Below, piece by piece: positions 13,878-29,823 of a stretch of 29,893 nt of DNA; within the stretch, counting starts at the first letter, position 1, and every line of letters begins with the position of its first letter. The position numbers were made by a program, and so were the translations under genes. Location: the NCBI GenBank assembly GCA_016235455.1, contig JACRKZ010000089.1:1-29893 (forward strand). The letters are read 5' to 3'. The notes under the pieces are model-generated. The model saw nothing but the letters and a program-made list of their open reading frames with translations, ran no database searches and was not told where the DNA came from. Source of the DNA: Armatimonadota bacterium (GTDB lineage Bacteria; Armatimonadota; UBA10988).

Positions 13878-16511
13878 TCAGCGCCGGCCGAGGATGGTGC
13901 GCACGCGGTCGGCCAGGGCGTCGAGCGAGAATGGCTTGCGCAGGAAATCGTCGTCGCCGACACCGCGATGGCTGAGCAGTTCGGCGTCGTGACCGGAGAT
14001 GTACAGGCAGCGCAGTTCCGGTCTGGTGCGGGCCAGCATGGCGCGTAGCTGGACGCCGTCCATGCCGGGCATGACGACGTCGGTGACCAGCAGGTGGATA
14101 GGGCCATCGTGCCCGTCGGCGGCGACCAATGCCTCGCTCGGGCTGAGCGCGGCGAGCACGCGGTAGCCCTCGTGTTCGAGGATGCGGCGGGCCAGGCTGA
14201 GGATCTGCTGCTCGTCCTCCACCAGCAGGACGGTGTGGTGGCCGACGGCGTCGGGCCGGCGCCGAACGTCGGGGGCGGGTTCGGTGTCGGCCGCTCGGTT
14301 GGCGCAGGGCAGGTACAGGCGCAGCGAGCTGCCGCGGCCAAGGTCGCTCTCCACCTCGATGCCGCCGCCGTTCTGCTTGACGATGCCGAACACGGTAGCC
14401 AGCCCGAGGCCGGTGCCGCGACCCACGTCCTTGGTGGTGTAGAACGGCTCGAACAGGTGCTGGCGCGTCGTCTCGCTCATGCCGGAGCCGGTGTCGGTGA
14501 CCGCCAGCATGACGTAGTCGCCGGCGGGCAGGTCGGCCTGCTCGCCGGTCAGTTGCACGTTGCGCGTGGCCAGCTCGATGCGGCCGTCGCCGTCGATGGC
14601 GTCGCGGGCGTTCACACACAGGTTGATCAGCACCTGGCTGACCTGATTGGGGTCCAGCTCCACCGGCCGAATGTCGGCGTCGGGCCGCCAGACCAGCTCG
14701 ATGTTCTCGCCGATGAGGCGGGCCAGCATGTTGAGCGTACTGGCCACGGTGTCGTTGAGATCGATGACCTTCGGCACGATCATCTGGCGGCGGGCGAAGG
14801 CCAGCAACTGCCGCGTCAGCTCGGCCGAGCGCTCGGCCGACAGGCGGATCTCCTGCAAGTACCCGGCCACCGGGCCATCGGGCATGACGGCGTCGGCAGC
14901 CAAGGCCGCATTGCCCAGGATGACCTGGAGCATGTTGTTGAAGTCGTGGGCCACGCCGCCGGCCAGCCGGCCCACGGACTCCAGCTTCTGCGCCTGCGCC
15001 AACTGCTCGCGCAGCCGTTCGCGCTCGGCATCGGCCCGGACGCGCTCGGTCACGTTGCGGAAGTAGCCGATCAGGCCGTCCACCTCGCCGTCCTGGTTGC
15101 GCTTGGGCACGTAGGTGCCGGCGAAGTACTCCACGTCGCCCGCGGCGTTGGCGAGCGGGGTTTCCAGGTGGTACGGCTGGCCCGACGCCAGCAACTCGCG
15201 CTTGACAGCGGTGAGTCGGGCGGCGTCATCGGGTGTCAGGAAATCACTATCCAGCTGGCCGAGGATCGCCTCCGCGGGGAGACCGAGTGGCGGGTTGACG
15301 ATGAAGGTGTAGCGCAGGTCCTGGTCCTGGACGAAGATGTGGTCCGGCGTGTGCGTGGCGATGACGCGTAGCCGCTCCTCGCTGCTGTGCAGCGCGGCCT
15401 CGGCGCGGATGCGGTCGGTGATGTCCACTGACACGCCGCCGAGCAACACCGGGCCATCGGCGACGGTGATGGGGAACTTCACCGTCCGGAAGGTGCGTTC
15501 GACGCCGAGGGTGTCGACCATCGACTCCTCGACCTCCAGCGGGCCGGAGCGCAACGCCAGCAGGTCGTCGGCCGCCATGCGCTCGCCGACATCGCCGGCG
15601 ATCAGCTCCGTGGTCAGCCGGTCACGCCACTGGTGCATGCCCAGCAGGTCTTCGAGGTAGTGGTTCACGAACACCGTTCGGCCATCGGCGGTTTTGATGA
15701 AGGCGGCCGCGGGCAGGTTGGCCATGAACGCCTCGAACCGCGCCACGCTGGCCCGCAGGGCCTCGTCCGGGGCACGCCGCGCCGCAACATCGCAGACGCA
15801 GGCCAGGATGCGTTGTCGCCCCTCGATCTCGACCACCCGGGCACGTATCTCGACGGCGAACTCCGAGCCGTCGGCCCGGCGATGCGTCGACTCGAACGTC
15901 GCCTCTGGTTGCTCCCGGAGCCGAGCGAACCCGGTGCGGTAGGCATCCAGTTCCAGCGTGGGATCGATGTCCGCGACAGACATGGTCAGCAACTGCTCGC
16001 GCGAGTAGCCCAGCATGGTGCACGTGGCCTGGTTGACCGCAAGCAGCCGCCCGTCCTCGTCGATCAGCTCAAACCCATCGGCAATCTGCTCGACCAGGGT
16101 GTGGAACAGTCTCTCGTCAGCGCACGTTTGGTACCGGGGCTCGCAGACGAGCAGGGCGGCAGCAGGTCTGGCGCCATCGGCCGTCAGGCGATGCAGCGTG
16201 ACGGCCGCCGCCTCGAACGCGCCATGGCGAAGCTGCAGCCGCAGCAACGTCTGCGCCGCTTCGCCGGCCAGCAGCGCGCGTACGACGGCCGCGTCGTCCG
16301 GATGAACGGCTTGTTCGAGCGTGCGCTCCGGCGACGATGGGCTCAGGTCGCCCAGCCAGTCGGCACAACGTGGGTTGGCGCGCTGGAAGCGGCCGCTGGG
16401 CAGTTCGACGCGCGCCACGCGGAGCGTGGTCTGGGAGAAGAGCGCGCACTCGAACGCGGAGTCCGGGCTGACCGAGCCGCCTGCCAGACTCGCCTCTGAG
16501 TTTGTGGTCAT
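13878..16511 (-). CDS. Cytoplasmic multi-PAS hybrid sensor histidine kinase with C-terminal receiver (CckA/NtrB-like)
   Basis: About 4 PAS-like units (VHPDD, HRRADGS, RTVKFPI, PKRNQDGEVDG); H-box GGVAHDFNNML; N-box NLCVNARDA; DTGSGM, FEPFYTTK, GTGLGL; receiver LLVEDE, TDVVMPGMDG, KPF. GGAGG RBS before ATG 16511. Confidence 0.93.
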   Translation of the reverse strand: MTTNSEASLAGGSVSPDSAFECALFSQTTLRVARVELPSGRFQRANPRCADWLGDLSPSSPERTLEQAVHPDDAAVVRALLAGEAAQTLLRLQLRHGAFEAAAVTLHRLTADGARPAAALLVCEPRYQTCADERLFHTLVEQIADGFELIDEDGRLLAVNQATCTMLGYSREQLLTMSVADIDPTLELDAYRTGFARLREQPEATFESTHRRADGSEFAVEIRARVVEIEGRQRILACVCDVAARRAPDEALRASVARFEAFMANLPAAAFIKTADGRTVFVNHYLEDLLGMHQWRDRLTTELIAGDVGERMAADDLLALRSGPLEVEESMVDTLGVERTFRTVKFPITVADGPVLLGGVSVDITDRIRAEAALHSSEERLRVIATHTPDHIFVQDQDLRYTFIVNPPLGLPAEAILGQLDSDFLTPDDAARLTAVKRELLASGQPYHLETPLANAAGDVEYFAGTYVPKRNQDGEVDGLIGYFRNVTERVRADAERERLREQLAQAQKLESVGRLAGGVAHDFNNMLQVILGNAALAADAVMPDGPVAGYLQEIRLSAERSAELTRQLLAFARRQMIVPKVIDLNDTVASTLNMLARLIGENIELVWRPDADIRPVELDPNQVSQVLINLCVNARDAIDGDGRIELATRNVQLTGEQADLPAGDYVMLAVTDTGSGMSETTRQHLFEPFYTTKDVGRGTGLGLATVFGIVKQNGGGIEVESDLGRGSSLRLYLPCANRAADTEPAPDVRRRPDAVGHHTVLLVEDEQQILSLARRILEHEGYRVLAALSPSEALVAADGHDGPIHLLVTDVVMPGMDGVQLRAMLARTRPELRCLYISGHDAELLSHRGVGDDDFLRKPFSLDALADRVRTILGRR

Positions 16512-16677
16512 CGCCCTCCACCTTCCCCTGTGCATCCCCAGCTTGGCACGGACCGGGCGTCAAGGCAAGTCCGCAGCGCCCGCAAGCCGCCCGGCAGGAA
16601 TCACTTCGCGGCTGACCAAACCGCCGGACGTCGGAACTCAGCGGCGCCGCCGGGCGCTAGGGGTGGAGGAGGCGACT

Positions 16678-17112
16678 ATGCAGCCATTCGCGGTCTGGTT
16701 CTCCGCGGCGCTCGTGCTGGGCATCGCCGAGCTGCTCACCGGCACCTTCGTGCTGCTGGTGATGGCCATTGCCGCCGTGGGTGGTGGCGTGGCCGCGCGG
16801 CTGGGTGTGGGCATGCCGGGCCAGCTGGTGGTGGCCGCGGTGATCGGCGTGGTGGGCTGTGCCGTGGTGGCCCGGCTCCATGACCGGCGGCCTCGTCTGC
16901 CGGCCGACGAGAACCCGGACGTCAACTCCGACATCGGCAACGCGGTCCAGGTGGACTCGTGGGCCGGCCGCTGCGCCCGCGTGAGCTACCGCGGCAGCCA
17001 GTGGGATGTGGAGTACCTTGGCGATGAGCCGCCGGGGCCAGGCAAGTACATCATTCGGCGCGTGGCCGGCAGCAAGCTGCTGGTCGGGCCAGACGACGTG
17101 CAGGGAGGTTGA
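16678..17112 (+). CDS. NfeD-family (short, YbbJ-like) membrane protein
   Basis: GGAGGAGG RBS; WFSAALVLGIAELLTGTFVLL TM region and C-terminal OB-fold RVSYRGSQWDV; directly upstream of an SPFH gene. Confidence 0.9.
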   Translation: MQPFAVWFSAALVLGIAELLTGTFVLLVMAIAAVGGGVAARLGVGMPGQLVVAAVIGVVGCAVVARLHDRRPRLPADENPDVNSDIGNAVQVDSWAGRCARVSYRGSQWDVEYLGDEPPGPGKYIIRRVAGSKLLVGPDDVQGG

Positions 17113-17114
17113 CC

Positions 17115-18074
17115 GTGGAAGGCTTGATGGTAGCGGGCGTACTGCTGGTGCTGGTGCTGACGTTCATTGGTCAGACGGTCAAGGTGGTGCCGCAGCAGCA
17201 CGCCTGGGTGGTGGAGCGGCTGGGCCGCTATGACCGCACGCTGGCCCCCGGCCTCAGCTTCGTGCTGCCGTTCATCGACCGCATCGCCTATCGGCACCTG
17301 CTCAAGGAGGTGCCGATGGATGTGCCCAGCCAGGTGTGCATCACCAAGGACAACACCCAGCTCTCGGTCGACGGCGTGATCTACTTCCAGGTGACCGACG
17401 CCCAGCGTGCCTCCTACGGCGCCAGCGACTACGTCATGGCCATCACGCAGCTCTCGCAGACCACGCTGCGTTCGGTCATCGGCCGGCTCGAGCTGGACAA
17501 GACCTTCGAGGAGCGCGACTTCATCAACCACACCATCGTCTCGGCGCTGGACGAGGCGGCGGTCAACTGGGGCGTGAAGGTGCTGCGCTACGAGATCAAG
17601 GACCTTACCCCGCCCGCGGCCATTCTGCACGCCATGCAGGCGCAGATCACCGCCGAGCGCGAGAAGCGCGCCCGCATCGCCACCTCCGAAGGCCGTATGC
17701 AGGAGGAGATCAACGTGGCCAACGGCGAGCGCCAGGCCGCCATCGCCAACTCCGAGGGCGAGCGCCAGGCCGCCATCAACCGCGCCCAAGGCGAGGCCTC
17801 GGCCATCCTGGCCATCGCCGAAGCCAGCGCCGAGGCGATCCGCAAGACCGCTGCCGCCATCGCTGAGCCGGGCGGCGAAGCCGCGGTCAACCTGAAAGTC
17901 GCCGAACGGTATGTTGAGGCGTTTGGCAACCTGGCAAAGGCGGGTAACACGCTGATCGTGCCCAGCAATCTGTCCGACGTGTCGGGGTTGATTGCCACGG
18001 CCATGAGCATTGTCAAGTCGGGGGACACCAAGCCGGCCCAGGTGGCCGGCGCGAAACCGGCGGCGCCGAAGTGA
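17115..18074 (+). CDS. SPFH/band-7 stomatin-like protein (QmcA/YbbK/paraslipin type)
   Basis: KVVPQQHAWVVERLGRY, QVCITKDN, QTTLRSVIG, WGVKVLRYEIKDLTPP, AEREKRA; GGGAGG RBS 6 nt before GTG 17115 (alternative start TTG 17109). Confidence 0.93.
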   Translation: MEGLMVAGVLLVLVLTFIGQTVKVVPQQHAWVVERLGRYDRTLAPGLSFVLPFIDRIAYRHLLKEVPMDVPSQVCITKDNTQLSVDGVIYFQVTDAQRASYGASDYVMAITQLSQTTLRSVIGRLELDKTFEERDFINHTIVSALDEAAVNWGVKVLRYEIKDLTPPAAILHAMQAQITAEREKRARIATSEGRMQEEINVANGERQAAIANSEGERQAAINRAQGEASAILAIAEASAEAIRKTAAAIAEPGGEAAVNLKVAERYVEAFGNLAKAGNTLIVPSNLSDVSGLIATAMSIVKSGDTKPAQVAGAKPAAPK

Positions 18075-19363
18075 CGCCGCGACGGCCAGCCAATGCCGTC
18101 AGGACCTGGTTGCTCGCGGCCATGGTCCTGACGGCGTGGGGGGCTCGCGCGTTAGACGTGGTGGCGACCAACGACCCCGCCGACCCCACTGTTTGGCCCA
18201 ACCGTGCCAGCAGCGCCAATTCCGACCGCTGGCTGGCCGAGCACCATGACCAGCTCCGCTCGATGGCGCCGCGCATCTTGGTGCTCAACTTCGCCAACGG
18301 CTGCACGGCGGCGCGGGCCGAGGTGACCGCGCGCGAGCTGGCCGCCGCGCTGTCCGAGAGCTCGCGCTACCACGGCTACGAGAAGCCCGAGGCCCCGGCC
18401 TTCCTGAGACCGCGCATCCTCAAGGTGGTCGACCTGACCGACCCCGCGCCATTCCCCACCACGCCGGATGGCAACAGCACGCGCTTCCCCCGCGTGCCCA
18501 ACTGGCACGAAGGCATGTTCAACTTCGTCTACCGCGAGCTGTACAGCGACCGCTTCGCCCAGTTCTACGGCATCGCTTCGCCCGACCAGCCCGGCCGGCC
18601 GTTGCCCCTGGCCGAGCTGGTGGCGCGCGGCATCGTGCATGAGGTGTGGTTCCTCGCACACCACGGCAAGGCCGGCGCGCCGTACGAATGCACCGAACTC
18701 AAGCCGGTCTACGACGAGCAGTTCCGCCGCGTGGGCGACGAGCATCGCCATGCGGGCAACGGCGGCGACCCGGACGAGCCCTGGCACGGCCGCAGCCTGC
18801 GCATCACCTTCATCAACTGGCAGCGCGGCATCGGCTGCGCGCTGGAGAACTTCGGCCATGCGCTGGAGGGTACGGCCAGCAGCCGGGTCATCCCCTACTT
18901 CACGCGCTACTTTGGCGAGTACGCGGGGTTCGACCTGGACAAGCGCTACGGCGCGCCGTTCGGCTCGTTCTACGCGGTGAACTACGGTCAGTCGGCGCTG
19001 GTCTACAGCGACCCCGATATGCTCACCGTCACCCATGGCGAACGCCGGGTCGTGCTCTCACCGTACATCCCCATCGGCGGCAACGTCCACTTCCCGCCCA
19101 ACGGCCGGCGCCACTACGACCTGGACAACCCCCAGCCGGTGCGCTCGACCATCGAGCACTACCGCCGCTTCGACGGCCCCGACGGCCGGGATCTGGCCGC
19201 GCCATGGAGCATCGACAGCTTCGCGCGGTACCGCCGGACCATGCCCGACTGCATGGGGCCGTGGCTGACCTACTGGCGCCAGAACATGCCGGGACTGGAT
19301 AACCCGTGCCGTGACGACGCGGGCCGGCCGATGAAGAACTGGTGGCCGTTCCTGTACTACTGA
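18071..19363 (+). CDS. Conserved-looking secreted hypothetical protein with a degenerate zincin-like motif
   Basis: Signal peptide ...LTAWGARA; GTGA overlap with the SPFH stop; GIGCALENFGHALE, GNVHFPPNGRRHYD, WLTYWRQNMPG, KNWWPFLYY. Confidence 0.75.
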   Translation: MTPRRPANAVRTWLLAAMVLTAWGARALDVVATNDPADPTVWPNRASSANSDRWLAEHHDQLRSMAPRILVLNFANGCTAARAEVTARELAAALSESSRYHGYEKPEAPAFLRPRILKVVDLTDPAPFPTTPDGNSTRFPRVPNWHEGMFNFVYRELYSDRFAQFYGIASPDQPGRPLPLAELVARGIVHEVWFLAHHGKAGAPYECTELKPVYDEQFRRVGDEHRHAGNGGDPDEPWHGRSLRITFINWQRGIGCALENFGHALEGTASSRVIPYFTRYFGEYAGFDLDKRYGAPFGSFYAVNYGQSALVYSDPDMLTVTHGERRVVLSPYIPIGGNVHFPPNGRRHYDLDNPQPVRSTIEHYRRFDGPDGRDLAAPWSIDSFARYRRTMPDCMGPWLTYWRQNMPGLDNPCRDDAGRPMKNWWPFLYY

Positions 19364-19372
19364 GTCGGGCGC

Positions 19373-21280
19373 TCAGCGCTTGGCCCAGTGCAGTCGAAGG
19401 GTGGCTGAGCGGACGTTGACCGCCGCGATGACTGGCTCGGCGGTGGTGTCCTGGCCGGGCGTGAACTGGGCTGTCGAGGCGTTGGTCGCGCGGAGTGTGC
19501 CGCCGCCGCTGACCAGGCGCCAGACGAAGCGCGGCCAGCCCACGGGTTTGCCGTCGGCGCCGTAGGCGACCGCCCGCAGTTCGACCATCTGGCCAGACTC
19601 GAGCAGCGGCCGGTCGGTCGTGATCTCCACTCTGTCCACCGGCGTACGCCAACCTGGCGCTGGCCACCATACGGGTGCTCCGTCCTGCTCCTGCTGCACG
19701 GTGACCCGTCGGCCGTCGCAGCCGTCCGGGCGAATGATGAAGATGTTGCCGGTGCCCGCCAACGCCGAGCCGTAGGCTATCCAGCGACCATCGGGCGACC
19801 AACTGGGTCGACCCTTCGCGCCGGCCTGACTGACCAAGTGGCGAACGTTGCTGCCGTCGGCATTCATTGCGTACAGATCGTTCCAGGGCCGGCCCTTGAC
19901 TCGGACGAAGAAGGCGATCTGCCCGCCGCCGGGGCTCCACGCTGGCGCGTGAGCGCCCACTCGGTCCAGCATACGCCGGGCCGCGGCCACACCATGCGCC
20001 GGCCGCATATAGAGGCGCTCCCCATCGTCGTCTTCGCGGGCCCAGACCAGCCATTGGCCGTCAGGCGAGAGAGCGGCCTCCTCGGCCGTGCCGGTGTCGG
20101 CCAGAGGCGCCGACCGGCCCGTGCTCAGGTCGATGTCGATCAGGCGTCGAGGCTCGCCCAGAGACGTGTAGATGAGGCCGTCGCCACCGGGCAGCCAGCA
20201 GGGCTGGCCGGGCAGGCCGACTGAGCTGACCGTGCTCTCGACGCGTGTGTCCAGGTAGAACGTGTGCAGGCCACTAATGCGACCGTCGGGCCTGACCATG
20301 TCGAAGGCGACACGCCGACCACCTGGTTCGGCGGCCAGGTGGCGCACACGGAACGCCGTGGAGATCAGCGAATGCCACTGAAAGTCGGCGCCGTCGGGCC
20401 GGACGGACGAGAGCATCTGGCGGTCCGCGCGTCGCGTGACGAAGAGCAGGCGCGTCTCGCCAAACGGTGACAGGCCGACCGGGATGCGCTGCTGATCCGC
20501 GGCATCGCGTCTGCTGGCCACGGCCAAGCCTAGCAGCAACGCAGCCACGCCCAGGGCCCCGAAGACGGCGCGCATGGTTGCCACACCCCGTCGGTGCTGC
20601 GCGACGAAGTCGAGGGCCTGCTCGGCGAGGCGCCGGTCGAGCGAGCGACGACCGGGCGCCAGCGGCAGAACCACATGGCCCTCGAGCAGGCTGATCACCC
20701 GAGCCAGGCGCTCCTCGCCCAGGCGCTCGTCGTGTTCAGCATTGCGCCAGTGCGCCCAGACTCGCGCGAGCGCGGCCACCGGATCCGCCAAAGCCCGGCC
20801 GTCGAGGATCACGCTAGGGTTGGCCGAGGGCGGCAGCGTGGTGTCGGCAGGCAACTGCACATCGGGCAGGGCGACGGCGTAGGCCTGCGTGAAGCGCCCG
20901 TGACGCCAGCCGCGACTGGTTGTCAGGTAGTGGGTCAGCGCGTGGAGCGCCTCGCTCGCCTGCCGAAGCGGGTCACGCGAACCCGGCCGCGGCTTGCCCA
21001 TCGCGGACAGGCTGACCCAGCCCTTGGCATGACCTCGGTACTCCAGGTGACCACCTTTGACCTCGATGACCATGAGGCCAAGGTCGGGATGGACCACAAT
21101 GAAGTCTGCCTCGCCATCGCGCTGCACACCGCGCGGCGAGACGCCCTGCCAGCGCACGCTGTAGAACACATGGTACGGCGCGGGCAGCCGGCTCAGCAGA
21201 TCGAACAGCCGGCATTCGGCGCGCCGGCCGGGCGACTGGCGGACCGATTCGGGTAGTTGGTTTGGGAACATGCGGGCCAT
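19373..21280 (-). CDS. NERD (PD-(D/E)XK) nuclease domain, TM helix, TolB-like PD40 beta-propeller and Ig-like domain fusion protein
   Basis: AECRLF, GEADFIVVHPDLGLMVIEVKGG, DPLRQA, YAVALPD; TM AVFGALGVAALLLGLAVA; ALSPDGQWLVW, PAWSPGGGQIAF, LYAMNADGSNVRHL, PSWSPDGRWIAY; C-terminal GQMVELRAVAYGADG...FVW. Confidence 0.8.
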   Translation of the reverse strand: MARMFPNQLPESVRQSPGRRAECRLFDLLSRLPAPYHVFYSVRWQGVSPRGVQRDGEADFIVVHPDLGLMVIEVKGGHLEYRGHAKGWVSLSAMGKPRPGSRDPLRQASEALHALTHYLTTSRGWRHGRFTQAYAVALPDVQLPADTTLPPSANPSVILDGRALADPVAALARVWAHWRNAEHDERLGEERLARVISLLEGHVVLPLAPGRRSLDRRLAEQALDFVAQHRRGVATMRAVFGALGVAALLLGLAVASRRDAADQQRIPVGLSPFGETRLLFVTRRADRQMLSSVRPDGADFQWHSLISTAFRVRHLAAEPGGRRVAFDMVRPDGRISGLHTFYLDTRVESTVSSVGLPGQPCWLPGGDGLIYTSLGEPRRLIDIDLSTGRSAPLADTGTAEEAALSPDGQWLVWAREDDDGERLYMRPAHGVAAARRMLDRVGAHAPAWSPGGGQIAFFVRVKGRPWNDLYAMNADGSNVRHLVSQAGAKGRPSWSPDGRWIAYGSALAGTGNIFIIRPDGCDGRRVTVQQEQDGAPVWWPAPGWRTPVDRVEITTDRPLLESGQMVELRAVAYGADGKPVGWPRFVWRLVSGGGTLRATNASTAQFTPGQDTTAEPVIAAVNVRSATLRLHWAKR

Positions 21281-21315
21281 GCAGGCGCCCCTTCTCTGGC
21301 TGGCCGTTGGGTTCC

Positions 21316-21344
21316 ATGATGCTCGTTGGCGACGCCGTCGTCAA
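21316..21344 (-). promoter_or_regulatory. Putative sigma70-like promoter of the NERD fusion gene
   Basis: Minus strand TTGACG (21344-21339), 17 nt spacer, CATCAT (21321-21316). Confidence 0.4.
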
Positions 21345-21622: not shown

Positions 21623-22279
21623 ATGGAGACACCAGAGCCGACGGTCAGCCGACCATCGCGTGGGCGGTGGCTATTGCGCCTGCTCGCCCTGGTGTGGCTC
21701 GCCGCGCTCGCCGGCGGCACCAGGTGGTGGCTGCGGCAGCCGTGCGTGGCGACGCGGGTCCTGGCGGTGGCCAGGCTGGACGATGAGACCACGGTCAGCT
21801 TGCTGCGGGCCGACTTTGTCAACCGCTTCGGCCGGTACCGCGACGATGAGGAAGATCAGGTCGTGCTCCGCGTCGACCGGCGCACCAGCCTCTACCACTT
21901 CCGTCACGAGTTCGTGGTGGCCGGCGGCCACTACTTCTCCGACAACCCGCTCGATGTCCGTGTCGCCCAGAGAAGCGTGTATCGATGGCGCATCTGGGTG
22001 GTCAACCCTCGCCCGTCGAGGTCACATGAGTCCCCGTTCGTGGGCGCGGAGGCCCACGCGGTCCTCGCCGCCTACGACGGCGGCAGCGGCCGATTCGTCA
22101 ACGCCCAGGGCTTCGTCGTGCCGGGCCGCATGGCGCTGGCCGAGCAGTGCCGGTGGCAGTTTGGCATGGAGCATGACAGCACGTGGAATCCCGTCGACGA
22201 TGGCCTTGAAATGGGCGATCTGCCGTCGTGGGCCACGCCAACCGGGGGGGCGGTTGTGCTCCGCTGGCAGGGCCGCTAG
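21623..22279 (+). CDS. Hypothetical membrane-anchored protein
   Basis: GAGGAG RBS; N-terminal TM WLLRLLALVWLAALAGG; GC3-biased codons; stop shares CTAG (22276-22279) with the convergent gene. Confidence 0.65.
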   Translation: METPEPTVSRPSRGRWLLRLLALVWLAALAGGTRWWLRQPCVATRVLAVARLDDETTVSLLRADFVNRFGRYRDDEEDQVVLRVDRRTSLYHFRHEFVVAGGHYFSDNPLDVRVAQRSVYRWRIWVVNPRPSRSHESPFVGAEAHAVLAAYDGGSGRFVNAQGFVVPGRMALAEQCRWQFGMEHDSTWNPVDDGLEMGDLPSWATPTGGAVVLRWQGR

Positions 22280-23781
22280 TTCGCTCCCGGCCTGCCGACC
22301 ACCACCGGCAGCTCGATCTCGCTCGACTGGCCACCGTCGACCCAGCGAAGGGTGATCTTGGCCTGGCCGCCGGGCGGCGCGTTCGCGCCGAGCTTGGCCG
22401 TCAGGTTGTAGTAGTAGGCGACCAGCTTCTGCGGCACATGCATCACGAACCGCGGGCCGGCGTCCGTCACGCGGCAGATGAGCCACTCGGCGGAAGACGT
22501 GCAGGTCAAGGTGCCGCGGGTGCGCGTGGTGACCCGGACGGGGAGCCCCATGGGCCCGCCGATGGTGAGCTGCAGGCGCTCCGCGGCGACGACCATCGGC
22601 TTGTCGCCGCGCAGCGCAAACCACTCGGCCACGGCTTCGGCGGCGGCGACCTGCTGCCGGATGGTGGACTTCATCCCGTCGGTCGCGGCGGCCAGGGCGG
22701 CGCGCGCGGCGTCGAGCCCGGCGGTGCCTGCGATTTGTGCCTCGGCCAGCTTGTCCTGGGCCAGCAGCAGCCGGCAGCGTTGCAGGTGCCACAGGCCGGC
22801 GGCCTCGGTCTGGGCCAGGCCTTCGCTGGCGGCGACCAGCCCTTCGGCCGTGTCGACGATGCCCTCGTTGCAGAGCTGGAAGCCGGCGCTGTCCACCGAC
22901 TGGGCCAGGCGCAGCACGGAGCGGTTCCGGACGGCCTGGTTGACGGCGTCGATGACCAGCGCGCCGCCGCGCCGGCGGTCGCCAGAGCGCATCAGATCGA
23001 TGCCGGCGCAGGTCTCGTAGTCGAGCCAGTCGGCGGTGTTGCTGGTGTAGCGTCCGCCGCGCATCCAGGTGGCCACGGCCTTGTCGTACTGCTTGGTCCA
23101 GCGGTAAAAGGTGGCCAGCGTGGTGAGCGGCGGCACCGGCCCGTTCTGCCGGCCAAACTCCGACAGGGCCAGCTCGCACAGGGCGACGCAGCGCTCATCG
23201 CGGCGCCGCATCAGTTCATCGGCCACCGGCTGCCTGGCCACGGCGGGCAAGGCACCGGGCGCCACCAGGTCCAGGCCGCTGTCGACCAGCGCCGCGGCGA
23301 CACGGTACACGAGGCTCAGGTTGACCGGCGACTCGGCCTTGGCGTCCGTCACCGCCTGGATCAGCACCTTGGGCTCGATCAGCCGCAGATTGCGGTCAAT
23401 TTCGGTCGAGCCCTCGCCCGCCTTGATGCGCCGGAAGACCTCGGCGGCGTCCATGGTCACCTGGACGGGCGCGACGCCGGGCAGAGCGGGCTGAACGGGC
23501 GCGGCGCCGGCCGCTGGCGGCACGGTCGGTCCGCCGAGATGCACGGGTGCGACGCCCCCGGCGCCGGCGGCGCGGGGCAGCGGCCTGACGGGCTCCGGCA
23601 GGCCCAGCGAACTGGCCAGTGGCGGGGTCAGCGCGGCCATCAGGTCCGGGCCGAGCTGCAACTGCCGGCACAGCGGCTGCCGCAGGTCGTAGCGCATCGG
23701 CGCCTGCTGGGCGGTGGCCGGGCCGGCGGCGCAGACCACGGCGAGAATGGCGGCATGTGCGAGTGGACGTGGCACACCCAT
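22276..23781 (-). CDS. Secreted hypothetical protein: Pro/Ala-rich linker, helical-repeat (TPR-like) core, C-terminal Ig/BACON-like domain
   Basis: AAGGG RBS then ATG 23781; signal peptide ...VVCAAGPATA; helical segments such as LATFYRWTKQYDKAVATW; LTCTSSAEWLICRV resembles the BACON Trp motif. Confidence 0.65.
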   Translation of the reverse strand: MGVPRPLAHAAILAVVCAAGPATAQQAPMRYDLRQPLCRQLQLGPDLMAALTPPLASSLGLPEPVRPLPRAAGAGGVAPVHLGGPTVPPAAGAAPVQPALPGVAPVQVTMDAAEVFRRIKAGEGSTEIDRNLRLIEPKVLIQAVTDAKAESPVNLSLVYRVAAALVDSGLDLVAPGALPAVARQPVADELMRRRDERCVALCELALSEFGRQNGPVPPLTTLATFYRWTKQYDKAVATWMRGGRYTSNTADWLDYETCAGIDLMRSGDRRRGGALVIDAVNQAVRNRSVLRLAQSVDSAGFQLCNEGIVDTAEGLVAASEGLAQTEAAGLWHLQRCRLLLAQDKLAEAQIAGTAGLDAARAALAAATDGMKSTIRQQVAAAEAVAEWFALRGDKPMVVAAERLQLTIGGPMGLPVRVTTRTRGTLTCTSSAEWLICRVTDAGPRFVMHVPQKLVAYYYNLTAKLGANAPPGGQAKITLRWVDGGQSSEIELPVVVGRPGAN

Positions 23782-23922
23782 GTCTGTCCCCTTGTCGTTG
23801 CGGGCGGCAAATCCCCTGACGGTTCGCCCCCACCCGGGTCTACCACAACCGCCGGCGCCGATCAAGCGAACCTGGGCAGGGGTGACGCCTCGCCCGCCGA
23901 ACACCGACGTTGGGAGCACGCC

Positions 23923-24816
23923 ATGAACCTCGGCCTGGTCAACCTCGACACCAGTCACGTCATCGCCTTCACCGAACTGCTGCACGGCGATCCCGACGCC
24001 TTCGGCGGTCTGCGCGTCACCCACGCCTGGCGCGGCGCCTCGCGCGTGCGCGGCACGGCCGACATCGAGGCCTATGCGGCGCGCCTGCGCGATGAGTTCG
24101 GCGTGACGCTGGTCGACGACCTGGACGACCTGGTGCCGCTGGTCGACGCGGCGCTGATCGAAGCCAACGAGGGCTCACGCCATCTGGCCCACGCCCGGCC
24201 GTTCCTGGCCGCGGGCAAGCGTTGCTGGATCGACAAGCCGCTGGGCGCCACCGTGCTCGAGGCGCGCGAGATCCTGGAACTGGCGCGCGAGGGCCAGACG
24301 GCCGTCTTCTCGGCCTCGGCGCTACGTTTCCTGCCGTCGGTCCGGACGCTGGCCGCCGGGCACGGCAGCATCACCGCCGCCGACGTGCAGACGCCCGCGC
24401 CGCAGCACTGGGCCAACCCCGGCCTGCTGCACTACGGCATCCACGGGGTGGAGATCCTCATGGCGCTGCTGGGCAGCGACTGCCGCCGGGTGCACTGCGT
24501 GCGCGGCGCCGACAGCGAGGTCTGCACGGGCCTGTGGGCCGACGGCCGGCTGGGCACGCTGCGCTGCCGTTACACCGGGCCGCACCACTACGTGGTTACC
24601 GCCGAGCGGCGCAACGAGGGCTCGACGCTGCACCAGGAGCAGCTCATGCTGGCCGACATCTACCGGCCGCTGGTGACCGAGGTGGCCAGCTTCCTGACCA
24701 CCGGGCAGAGCCCGCTGCACGAGGCCGACATGCTGGCCACCATCGCCTTCATCGAGGCGGCGGCGCTGTCGGCGCGGCTGGGCGGCGTCGGCGTGGAGTT
24801 GGAGCGGTGGGTGTGA
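23923..24816 (+). CDS. Gfo/Idh/MocA-family oxidoreductase
   Basis: GGGAG RBS; MNLGLVNLDTSHVIAF, HLAHARPFLAAGKRCWIDKPL, FSASALRF, YGIHGVE. Confidence 0.88.
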   Translation: MNLGLVNLDTSHVIAFTELLHGDPDAFGGLRVTHAWRGASRVRGTADIEAYAARLRDEFGVTLVDDLDDLVPLVDAALIEANEGSRHLAHARPFLAAGKRCWIDKPLGATVLEAREILELAREGQTAVFSASALRFLPSVRTLAAGHGSITAADVQTPAPQHWANPGLLHYGIHGVEILMALLGSDCRRVHCVRGADSEVCTGLWADGRLGTLRCRYTGPHHYVVTAERRNEGSTLHQEQLMLADIYRPLVTEVASFLTTGQSPLHEADMLATIAFIEAAALSARLGGVGVELERWV

Positions 24817-27588: not shown

Positions 27589-28167
27589 ATGAGCGAGGTG
27601 CGCCAGGCCAGGTTCCTGCTCACACCAGAGGAGTATCTGGCGCTGGAAGCCGACGCCGAGACCCGGCACGAGTATGTCGCCGGCCGCATCTATGCGCTGG
27701 CCGGCGCCAGTTCCGACCACATCCTGATTGCCGCCAACCTGGGTGGCGCGCTGTGGTCGCATCTGCGTGGCGCGCCGTGTCATTATGTCGGCAGCGATAT
27801 GAAGCTGCGCGTCTCGCACACGGTCTACTACTACCCGGACGCCATGGTCTGCTGCGACCCGACCGACAACGCCAACGGCTATCGTGAGCGGCCGCGGCTG
27901 GTGTTCGAGATCACCTCGGACTCCACACGCGCTATCGATGAGCGCGAGAAGGCGGCCGCCTACCAGCAGCTACCCAGCGTCGAGGTCTACGTGCTGATCG
28001 ATCAGGACCGCTGCCGCGTGGTCGTGCAGCGGCGCGGCACCGGCGATGCCGGCTGGACCGGCGAGGAGTTGCTGGGCGCGGCCGCCGTGCTCCACCTCGA
28101 CCCCATCGGCCTCGATCTGCCGCTGGGCACGCTGTATGAGCGGACCAGCGCGCTCAGGCCAGCTTGA
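27589..28167 (+). CDS. Uma2-family putative endonuclease (copy 1)
   Basis: [61 protein letters not shown]. Confidence 0.92.
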
Positions 28168-29250: not shown

Positions 29251-29823
29251 ATGAGCGAGCTGCGCCAGGCCCAGTGCATTGTCACGCCGGACGAGTACCT
29301 GGCGCTGGAAGCGGTCTCGCCAGACAAGCACGAGTACGTGGCCGGCCGGGTCTATGCCCTGGCCGGAGCCAGCCAGAGTCACAACCGCATCGCCATGAGG
29401 CTGTACCGGGCGCTCGGCAACCATCTCGACGGCACGCCCTGCGAGCCGTTCGGCAGCGACATGCGCTTGCGCGTGACGCGGAACGTCTACTACTACCCCG
29501 ACGCCATGGTCTGCTGCGACCCGACGGACAGCGCCGAGCACCACCGGCGTCGCCCGCGCTTCGTCTTCGAGATCGCCTCCCAGGCCACGCGCGCCATCGA
29601 CGAGCGCGAGAAGGCGTTCGCCTACTTCCAGATTATCACCATTGAGGCGTACATCCTGCTCGACCAGGACGACTGCCGTGCCGCGGTGCATCGGCGGGGC
29701 GACGACGGCTGGACCGTGGAGGAGTTGGTCGGACCCGACGCCGTGCTGCGCCTGGAGAGCCTGGCGCTGGCGCTGCCGCTCGGCACGCTGTATGAGCGGA
29801 CCGGCGTCAGCGGGGCCTCATAG
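29251..29823 (+). CDS. Uma2-family putative endonuclease (copy 2)
   Basis: Same motifs as copy 1 ([43 protein letters not shown]); roughly 60-65% amino-acid identity by manual alignment. Confidence 0.92.

Follow-up and report, generated by a model that had tools for sequence, protein, structure and literature searches.

The first demonstration of membrane-bound defence nucleases came in 2026 with SNIPE of Escherichia coli (Saxton et al., Nature 2026; PMC13190303), for which an inner-membrane tether is reported that can prevent self-damage and allows phage DNA to be cut during injection, the location of a nuclease being able to replace sequence or modification in the distinction of self from non-self. 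SNIPE is encoded by a stand-alone gene in which the nuclease is conserved most and the envelope-facing adapter is variable. A second membrane protein, SmdA of Staphylococcus aureus (Myrbraten et al., mBio 2022; PMC9040797), has an N-terminal transmembrane (TM) helix and a cytoplasmic NERD-like domain, and is described as septal and needed for normal division. NERD domains are enriched in defence islands, and a NERD-plus-helicase gene cluster (‘cluster 485’) lies beside 7 of 17 UG34 reverse transcriptases, in the survey of Mestre et al. 2022 (PMC9226505). Here we describe a gene at positions 19373..21280 (minus strand) of a 29,893-nucleotide stretch of DNA from a bacterium of the phylum Armatimonadota (assembly GCA_016235455.1, contig JACRKZ010000089.1, positions 1 to 29,893; hereafter the window). 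This gene joins a NERD nuclease module, descended from a family of NERD-superfamily 1 (SF1) helicases, to a single predicted TM helix, a TolB-type propeller of PD40 repeats and a probably immunoglobulin (Ig)-like tail. We tentatively suggest that the product could be a membrane-tethered defence nuclease with a periplasmic module for targeting or sensing, a reading that we regard as possible while placing it short of an even chance.

A first-pass annotation of the window had described the gene as one uninterrupted frame with its own promoter. The frame is as described, with an ATG start, 635 codons and zero internal stops, and its start (MARMFP) fits position 1 of the family consensus. Over the three codon positions GC is 0.73/0.54/0.82, which is how a real gene looks in a genome of 70% GC. 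The promoter stands as a consensus match only: one sigma-70-like site occurs 36-64 nt before the ATG, whereas shuffled sequence would give 0.1, and a ribosome-binding motif accompanies it. The features of the gene, all on the minus strand, are:

19373..21280, minus: coding sequence of the target protein (P0001, 635 amino acids [aa] plus stop); open frame, coding-like GC by codon position
20657..21280, minus: predicted cytoplasmic NERD / PD-(D/E)xK nuclease module, aa 1-208, with E22, D59, E73 and K75 (Pfam, PADLOC, alignment, model)
20570..20656, minus: juxtamembrane helical linker, aa 209-237 (model helices 211-228 and 230-241, predicted local distance difference test score [pLDDT] ~57-73)
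20513..20569, minus: single predicted TM helix, aa 238-256 (Kyte-Doolittle)
19646..20512, minus: predicted extracytoplasmic linker and TolB-type PD40 beta-propeller, aa 257-545 (Pfam, NCBIfam, model)
19376..19645, minus: C-terminal seven-strand beta domain, probably Ig-like (Big_2-like), aa 546-635 (model, ESM Atlas)
21288..21294, minus: Shine-Dalgarno-like GAAGGGG, 7 nt before the ATG (direct reading of the sequence)
21316..21344, minus: sigma-70-like promoter match TTGACG-17-CATCAT (consensus match only)

The N-terminal module was recognised by Pfam as NERD (PF08378) at aa 18-119 (E 1.3e-10; score 42.2 bits, gathering threshold 22.1) and by the PADLOC profile RTasNERD-Hel, which matches aa 1-199 at profile positions 1-186 of 519 (E 3.8e-27). 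The catalytic signature of PD-(D/E)xK nucleases is E...D...ExK. In an alignment of 66 sequences (the target, one ortholog and 64 helicase-bearing relatives), E22, D59, F60, G68, E73, K75, G76, G77 and P139 were invariant in all 66, including both fusion proteins; as aligned, all four catalytic residues are intact, in agreement with the first-pass reading of an N-terminal NERD domain with its key residues kept. The same four-residue pattern was substituted in the NERD endonuclease ZwsA, where 4 of 4 substitutions impaired antiphage activity (bioRxiv 10.64898/2026.04.06.716636). In an AlphaFold2 model of aa 1-270, pLDDT is 93-99 over aa 1-200 and falls to 57-73 in the helices that continue through the TM segment. 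Foldseek searches with the nuclease-module model found no solved structure at E<=0.001, the weak matches being Bax1, Shedu SduA, Cas4, McrC, Can2 and NucC. A wider structural search with the model gave Z 8.4 for the linker domain of SLFN12 and 8.2 for Can2, followed by VC1899, Cdn1, Can1, SLFN11, McrC, NucS, Card1 and HsdR at Z 6.7-7.9; the top matches are almost all PD-(D/E)xK nucleases, and Z values of 5-8.4 are a range common for the method. The model is thus in keeping with the PD-(D/E)xK fold class for the module, without a close solved relative.

Relatives of the module normally continue into a helicase. A search with aa 1-265 returned 69 proteins and, besides the query and its ortholog P0002, the other 67 are 417-594 aa long, 65 of them with helicase or P-loop Pfam families. 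HMMER searches with aa 1-270 against 1.84 billion representatives gave 2574 matches at E<=0.001 (882 at E<=1e-10), of which the best 150 were examined closely together with P0002, making 151 sequences. Within this set, a Walker A motif is present in 119 of the 149 relatives other than the fusion pair (104 of at least 480 aa, 15 shorter); 28 of the 30 that lack it are of 329 aa or less and are probably fragments, and a missing Walker A, a TM-like segment and SPDG repeats occur together only in P0001 and P0002. A regular-expression search for Walker A in P0001 found none, and the Pfam scan found no helicase families. The first-pass annotation had stated that an N-terminus of this kind usually comes before an SF1 helicase and had seen no Walker A here; both statements agree with these counts and with the full-length PADLOC profile.

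The homology to the helicase family covers only the N-terminal part. Five helicase-bearing relatives cover RTasNERD-Hel positions 1 to 514-518 of 519 whereas the target covers only 1-186, and a profile built from 64 helicase rows aligns to aa 1-208 only in both fusion proteins (212 bits for the target). Over this region the target is 30-45% identical to many members of the NERD-SF1 helicase family (~560 aa), with E/D/E-K, W44, P104-Q107 and P139-D140 in common. By these alignments the module shared with the helicases comprises aa 1-208, which puts the swap point somewhere from about aa 208 to 237. A derivation of the TM helix in place, from the strand and helix of the Walker A region, was considered on the grounds that MAFFT set the TM on the GxGKT columns and that pairwise alignments reached aa 255-265. 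It was rejected: the helicase profile stops at aa 208, and the real tail (aa 234-270) scored no better against the helicase profile than shuffles, its score being reached by 169 of 300 (P0001) and 300 of 300 (P0002). A split gene was likewise rejected, no helicase part of the NERD-SF1 family being found elsewhere in the 93%-complete source genome, as was P0259 (252 aa, with a hydrophobic stretch) as a further case of the same architecture; from ~aa 160 on it no longer follows the family, and it resembles a fragment. No reverse transcriptase family, including the UG34 type, was found among the 20 window open reading frames (ORFs) scanned.

An alignment profile of the NERD-helicase family searched against solved structures matched only helicases, through the helicase columns, and none for the N-terminal module. 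As a side observation on that family, its helicase part has sequence similarity to the helicase domains of two human proteins, Schlafen 11 (E 7e-20) and Schlafen 5 (E 7e-17). Among the best structural matches of the NERD module are two Schlafen linker domains, those of SLFN12 (Z 8.4) and SLFN11 (Z 7.6), situated immediately in front of that helicase. In its entirety, the bacterial NERD-helicase may be a counterpart of the linker and helicase part of the long Schlafens.

Following the linker, the best 19-residue Kyte-Doolittle window of the target falls at aa 238-256 (2.27) and is its sole segment above 1.6; P0002 has a hydrophobic segment at the same position (2.07), so that the single TM helix proposed in the first-pass annotation recurs in the ortholog. 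No signal peptide was found at the N-terminus, which is a globular nuclease of ~200 residues. Because a signal peptide is missing and the TM-PD40 layout recurs with cytoplasmic outputs (see below), we infer a single-pass inner-membrane protein with the N-terminus in and the C-terminus out. The arrangement put forward at first pass, a cytoplasmic nuclease, one membrane pass and an outside domain, is thereby supported in its architecture and predicted in its topology.

The predicted outside part begins with the propeller. PD40 repeats, also noted at first pass, were detected by Pfam (PF07676, E 7.5e-13), and NCBIfam TolB (TIGR02800) gave a partial match at aa 405-540, covering profile positions 199-332 of 418 with 77.1 bits against a cut-off of 343.15. 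TolB propellers consist of six four-stranded blades. The model of aa 260-635 (mean pLDDT 85.6) shows 20 strands of at least 3 residues before the tail, plus short bridges, which fits the TolB blade layout, and its best structural match is TolB 7mx5 (Z 32.5, root-mean-square deviation 2.4 A over 272 residues, 20% identity; next family 25.8), with a Foldseek E of 2.6e-16 for the propeller against TolB. The last 90 residues form seven strands in the model (block pLDDT 76-89). For this tail the first-pass label of Ig-like is held with moderate confidence: its ESM Atlas look-alikes are Big_2 clusters (score 0.91), the best ten with a family sharing Big_2 or its clan, but Pfam gave no match at E<=10 for aa 546-635 of either target or ortholog, Big_2 (PF02368) included. 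Structural searches with the whole C-terminal model returned a list filled by propellers, and an ESM Atlas search with the whole target protein gave no usable match.

PD40 propellers behind a single TM helix are found with several cytoplasmic outputs. An internal TM before the propeller occurs in 16 of 116 PD40 relatives, and among the matches listed all 16 proteins with a named output domain have one; these comprise 3 winged helix-turn-helix (wHTH), 11 kinase, 1 TIR and 1 STAND protein. Ser/Thr kinase-TM-PD40, wHTH(Trans_reg_C)-TM-PD40 and TIR-TM-PD40 proteins and PknD share the layout of the target, although their output is not a nuclease, and the extracellular propeller sensor of PknD (PDB 1rwi) matches the target propeller at Z 19.9. 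To judge from these sequences, a PD40 propeller behind a single TM is a recurrent extracytoplasmic sensor module for cytoplasmic outputs. Two of the relatives, TIR-TM-PD40 P0115 (609 aa) and STAND/AAA-TM-PD40 P0117 (784 aa), carry immune-type outputs before the same membrane-propeller module.

The complete architecture was found in one other protein. Among the matches listed in a word-indexed search of 5.8 billion proteins, the only full-length homolog was P0002 (637 aa, 49% identity, 100% coverage), an NCBI-named PD40 protein of a Fimbriimonadaceae metagenome-assembled genome that is encoded exactly by genome G004, of the same family and another genus. The remaining 118 listed matches comprise two NERD helicases and PD40 proteins whose coverage of the query is 48% or less, and PF08378 and PF07676 are combined only in P0001 and P0002 among these 120 best matches. 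Of 401 genomes searched across the phylum, two carry the full-length form (G000, the source, and G004), both within the six genomes of the bacterial family, and five further genomes match the N-terminal module only. Both natural copies are in uncultured groundwater or freshwater bacteria. A junction-specific search (aa 150-330) found only the query; it missed the known ortholog P0002 and is too insensitive to count. No paper combining NERD, transmembrane and PD40 was present in the literature searched, and none of the papers on NERD domains and transmembrane proteins describes the target layout, judged by titles and abstracts. Fusions with more distant NERD types may lie below rank 150 of the HMMER matches.

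The first-pass annotation had allowed for an architecture unique to this assembly with a junction that reads do not span. An assembly chimera or mis-called gene would be in keeping with the source, a metagenome-assembled genome of 185 contigs, but we give it almost no chance. The independent assembly of the other genus (G004) has the same architecture end to end; contigs from an independent study (at least 99% identity) cross the TM-coding junction with 0-1 mismatches (X4, record 10, 20457-20654, 1 mismatch; X6, record 17, 20373-20619, 0); and GC at third codon positions (GC3) is level across the nuclease/TM junction (0.79-0.84), the same in both halves. The fusion gene is real and not an assembly artefact, and that doubt falls away. 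The target is a new and very rare combination of which every part was already known, as were membrane-bound defence nucleases.

The fusion probably arose locally. In an unrooted FastTree tree of 121 N-terminal modules, the fusion pair (support 0.97) groups with P0187, P0189 and P0188 (support 0.96). P0187 is a 570-aa helicase paralog encoded by G004 itself; G001, of the target's genus and 80% complete, encodes a 577-aa helicase 99% identical to P0189, with no fusion found; and the source genome (93% complete) has the fusion, with no helicase part of the family found. Since the nearest relatives of the nuclease module are genes that carry a helicase and come from the bacterial family of the source, the sequence data suggest a local swap in which a resident NERD-SF1 helicase gene probably had its motor replaced by a TM-propeller module in an ancestor of both genera. 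The lower GC3 seen at first pass is confirmed (0.82 against 0.89-0.92 in most neighbours), whereas the foreign origin drawn from it is weakly supported, because the target is only a modest GC3 outlier and those nearest relatives come from the same family: the genome mean is 0.882 (standard deviation 0.036), the target lies 1.7 standard deviations below it, and values of 0.82 or less are seen in 207 of 2950 long ORFs, which places the gene within the lowest 7%, with a uniform profile.

That only two genomes carry the fusion, and that its GC3 is below most genes, would also suit a fusion left over from a recent domain swap and under little or no selection for a function, or a scaffold whose nuclease is dead. 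We consider this quite improbable: both orthologs keep an open frame (635 and 637 aa) at 49% overall identity, with every catalytic and family-invariant residue and a nuclease module 62% identical between them, and open frames with invariant residues in two genera imply long purifying selection. By segment, target and ortholog are identical at 62% of positions in the nuclease, 62% in the linker (18/29), 42% in the TM, 40% in the propeller and 48% in the tail, the periplasmic part as a whole standing at 41%.

In the reading we tentatively prefer, that of a membrane-tethered defence nuclease, the tether would hold the NERD nuclease at the membrane, apart from the bulk of the chromosome; on the periplasmic side, the propeller and Ig module would bind an envelope or invader component; and this binding would place the nuclease, or switch it on, at the entry site of foreign nucleic acid, which it would then cut. 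With no helicase the protein would not track along DNA, and it would therefore act only on nucleic acid that reaches the membrane. Several observations favour this reading. The domain architecture and the intact catalytic residues suit it, as do the descent from a helicase family linked to defence (with a paralog close to two PADLOC candidate genes in G004), the local origin and the recurrence of the TM-PD40 module as a sensor. The gene behaves as an accessory gene (2 of 401 genomes, no synteny between the two loci, GC3 in the lowest 7%), and conservation is higher in the nuclease (62%) than in the periplasmic part (41%), a pattern also reported for SNIPE (PMC13190303).

Several observations weigh against it. 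With neither a defence island nor a conserved partner gene found, the functions proposed at first pass, abortive infection or the cutting of incoming DNA, stay putative. None of the five immediate neighbours of the target that were compared matches PADLOC, and none of nine neighbours of the ortholog does; the sole PADLOC matches in the window besides the target are two Uma2 genes (candidate PDC-S03) 6-8 kb away. No signs of a mobile element were found in the window, with no tRNA and, among the 20 ORFs scanned, no integrase. Because there are only two orthologs, no enrichment statistic is possible. The topology is based on hydropathy and the missing signal peptide, the charge bias around the helix being weak (3 K+R against 2), and the nuclease module resembles solved nucleases only modestly (Z no higher than 8.4, with no Foldseek match at E<=0.001). 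Moreover, the membrane-anchored NERD protein SmdA acts in cell division and not in defence (PMC9040797).

This last precedent bears directly on a housekeeping role in the envelope or in division, in which the propeller would dock on Pal-like or peptidoglycan-associated partners at the division site and the NERD module would link membrane and nucleoid or clear DNA there, as has been proposed for SmdA. The precedent of SmdA, a septal membrane NERD protein needed for division (PMC9040797), is in line with such a role, as are the best structural match of the propeller, TolB being part of Tol-Pal, and the ordinary neighbour genes. We nevertheless judge it unlikely. The gene is patchy (2 of 6 family genomes, and not in G001 of the same genus, 80% complete), its genomic context is not conserved and it descends from a defence-linked helicase family; the protein scores 77.1 bits where the TolB model requires 343.15, and it has no TolB N-terminal domain; and SmdA is without several conserved NERD residues, all of which the target keeps.

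The same architectural evidence that suits a tethered defence nuclease would also suit an abortive-infection receptor-nuclease, in which the ectodomains cluster on a periplasmic cue (such as a phage tail or ejection protein, or damage to the envelope) and the NERD domains, brought together, degrade all DNA, so that the infected cell dies. To our knowledge, single-pass receptors signal only through changes in oligomeric state. TIR is a known suicide effector, and a TIR-TM-PD40 relative exists (P0115); the juxtamembrane linker is conserved as much as the nuclease (62%). Abortive infection is nonetheless improbable in our estimate, a tethered nuclease reaching membrane-proximal DNA only. A bolder form of the defence reading, a one-polypeptide transmembrane immune receptor-nuclease whose ectodomain would detect a phage part or damage and whose NERD cleavage would be activated by clustering, seems to us doubtful. 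If true, it would correspond in bacteria to receptor kinases or Toll-like receptors, with direct nucleic-acid cleavage as its output, and its origin would be recent, a defence helicase-nuclease having exchanged the motor for a sensor that faces outward.

A membrane-held cytoplasmic nuclease would equally be compatible with the processing of incoming DNA, that is, with a DNA-uptake or DNA-processing nuclease acting on transforming or conjugative DNA at the inner membrane to the benefit of the cell. We think this very unlikely: the scan of 20 window ORFs turned up no gene for competence, conjugation or type IV pili, nor did the ortholog neighbours. The uptake nucleases known to us are extracytoplasmic.

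The neighbours of the target are ordinary genes or genes of no family (an NfeD-SPFH pair, Gfo/Idh/MocA and pectate-lyase-like genes), and the ortholog is flanked by a BPL_N-like gene and a homocysteine methyltransferase/MTHFR gene. A conserved partner gene was rejected, since tblastx of the window against the 20-kb locus of the ortholog matches only the gene itself; the target gene is solitary and without a conserved partner. On the plus strand at 16321-19363, an NfeD-like gene, an SPFH/Band 7 gene (17109-18074) and a 430-aa gene (18071-19363) overlap by 4 nt each and look operon-like; the 430-aa protein has an N-terminal signal-like segment and no Pfam or PADLOC family, and its gene ends 9 nt from the target stop, with no terminator found between the two. 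On the other side, convergent ORFs at 21623-22279 (plus, 218 aa, divergent from the target) and 22276-24024 (minus, 582 aa) overlap at their ends by 4 nt, with GC3 of 0.86 and 0.89 and no Pfam or PADLOC family. The Uma2 paralogs (putative restriction endonuclease) lie at 27589-28167 and 29251-29823, both on the plus strand, and match PDC-S03 at E 5.5e-21 and 2.5e-23. Beyond the window, the locus of the helicase paralog P0187 (L013, G004:C79, 1987-9609) looks like a small, defence-island-like cluster: within ~2-6 kb lie a 640-aa NERD+UvrD protein, matched by the candidate PADLOC model C3a187 (E 7.5e-114), and an ATPase with DUF4143, matched by the candidate model PDC-S01 (E 4.9e-152). About 2 kb from the ortholog (L012, G004:C96, 6172-8178), a 668-aa protein joins an aspartyl-protease-like N-terminus to PD40 repeats, an unusual fusion.

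When compared with the known systems, the target shares its N-terminal 208 residues with the NERD-SF1 helicases (RTasNERD-Hel, PDLC03813), but where these carry a helicase (profile ~190-519, with Walker A) it has a TM helix, a propeller and an Ig-like domain. This is a clean domain replacement, and the helicase-bearing parent persists in sister genomes, allowing a direct comparison of the loss of a motor with the gain of an anchor. TolB has a similar propeller fold, but the target falls below the TIGR02800 cut-off, lacks the TolB N-terminal domain and a signal peptide, and is predicted to be membrane-anchored with a cytoplasmic nuclease. ZwsA is a stand-alone defence effector whose E/D/E/K NERD pattern is intact in the target, and is set apart as a cytoplasmic protein of VHS, DUF647, NERD and S4 architecture; by its example, the substrate of the target could be RNA rather than DNA. 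SmdA is membrane-anchored with a cytoplasmic NERD-like domain, as is predicted for the target, and has a monocistronic gene (PMC9040797); this conserved cell-division factor is set apart by an N-terminal anchor, by having no extracytoplasmic domain and by several missing NERD residues, whereas the target has an internal TM (aa 238-256), all conserved NERD residues and a patchy distribution.

SNIPE is a single-pass membrane protein with a cytoplasmic nuclease and a variable envelope-facing part, a layout predicted for the target, and like the target it is encoded by a stand-alone gene. It differs in its GIY-YIG nuclease and DUF4041, in a TM near the N-terminus, in a short periplasmic part and in the lack of homology; neither GIY-YIG nor DUF4041 was found in the target in a Pfam scan at E<=1, and the target has its NERD module at the N-terminus, the opposite orientation and a periplasmic part of ~380 aa. 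Notwithstanding these differences, SNIPE would be the closest functional analogue of the target, a non-homologous one, and the target approaches its layout from unrelated parts, with the addition of a large receptor-like ectodomain that is absent in SNIPE. If the target is active, the membrane-nuclease strategy evolved more than once, and this gene would offer a simple one-gene case of periplasmic control over a cytoplasmic nuclease.

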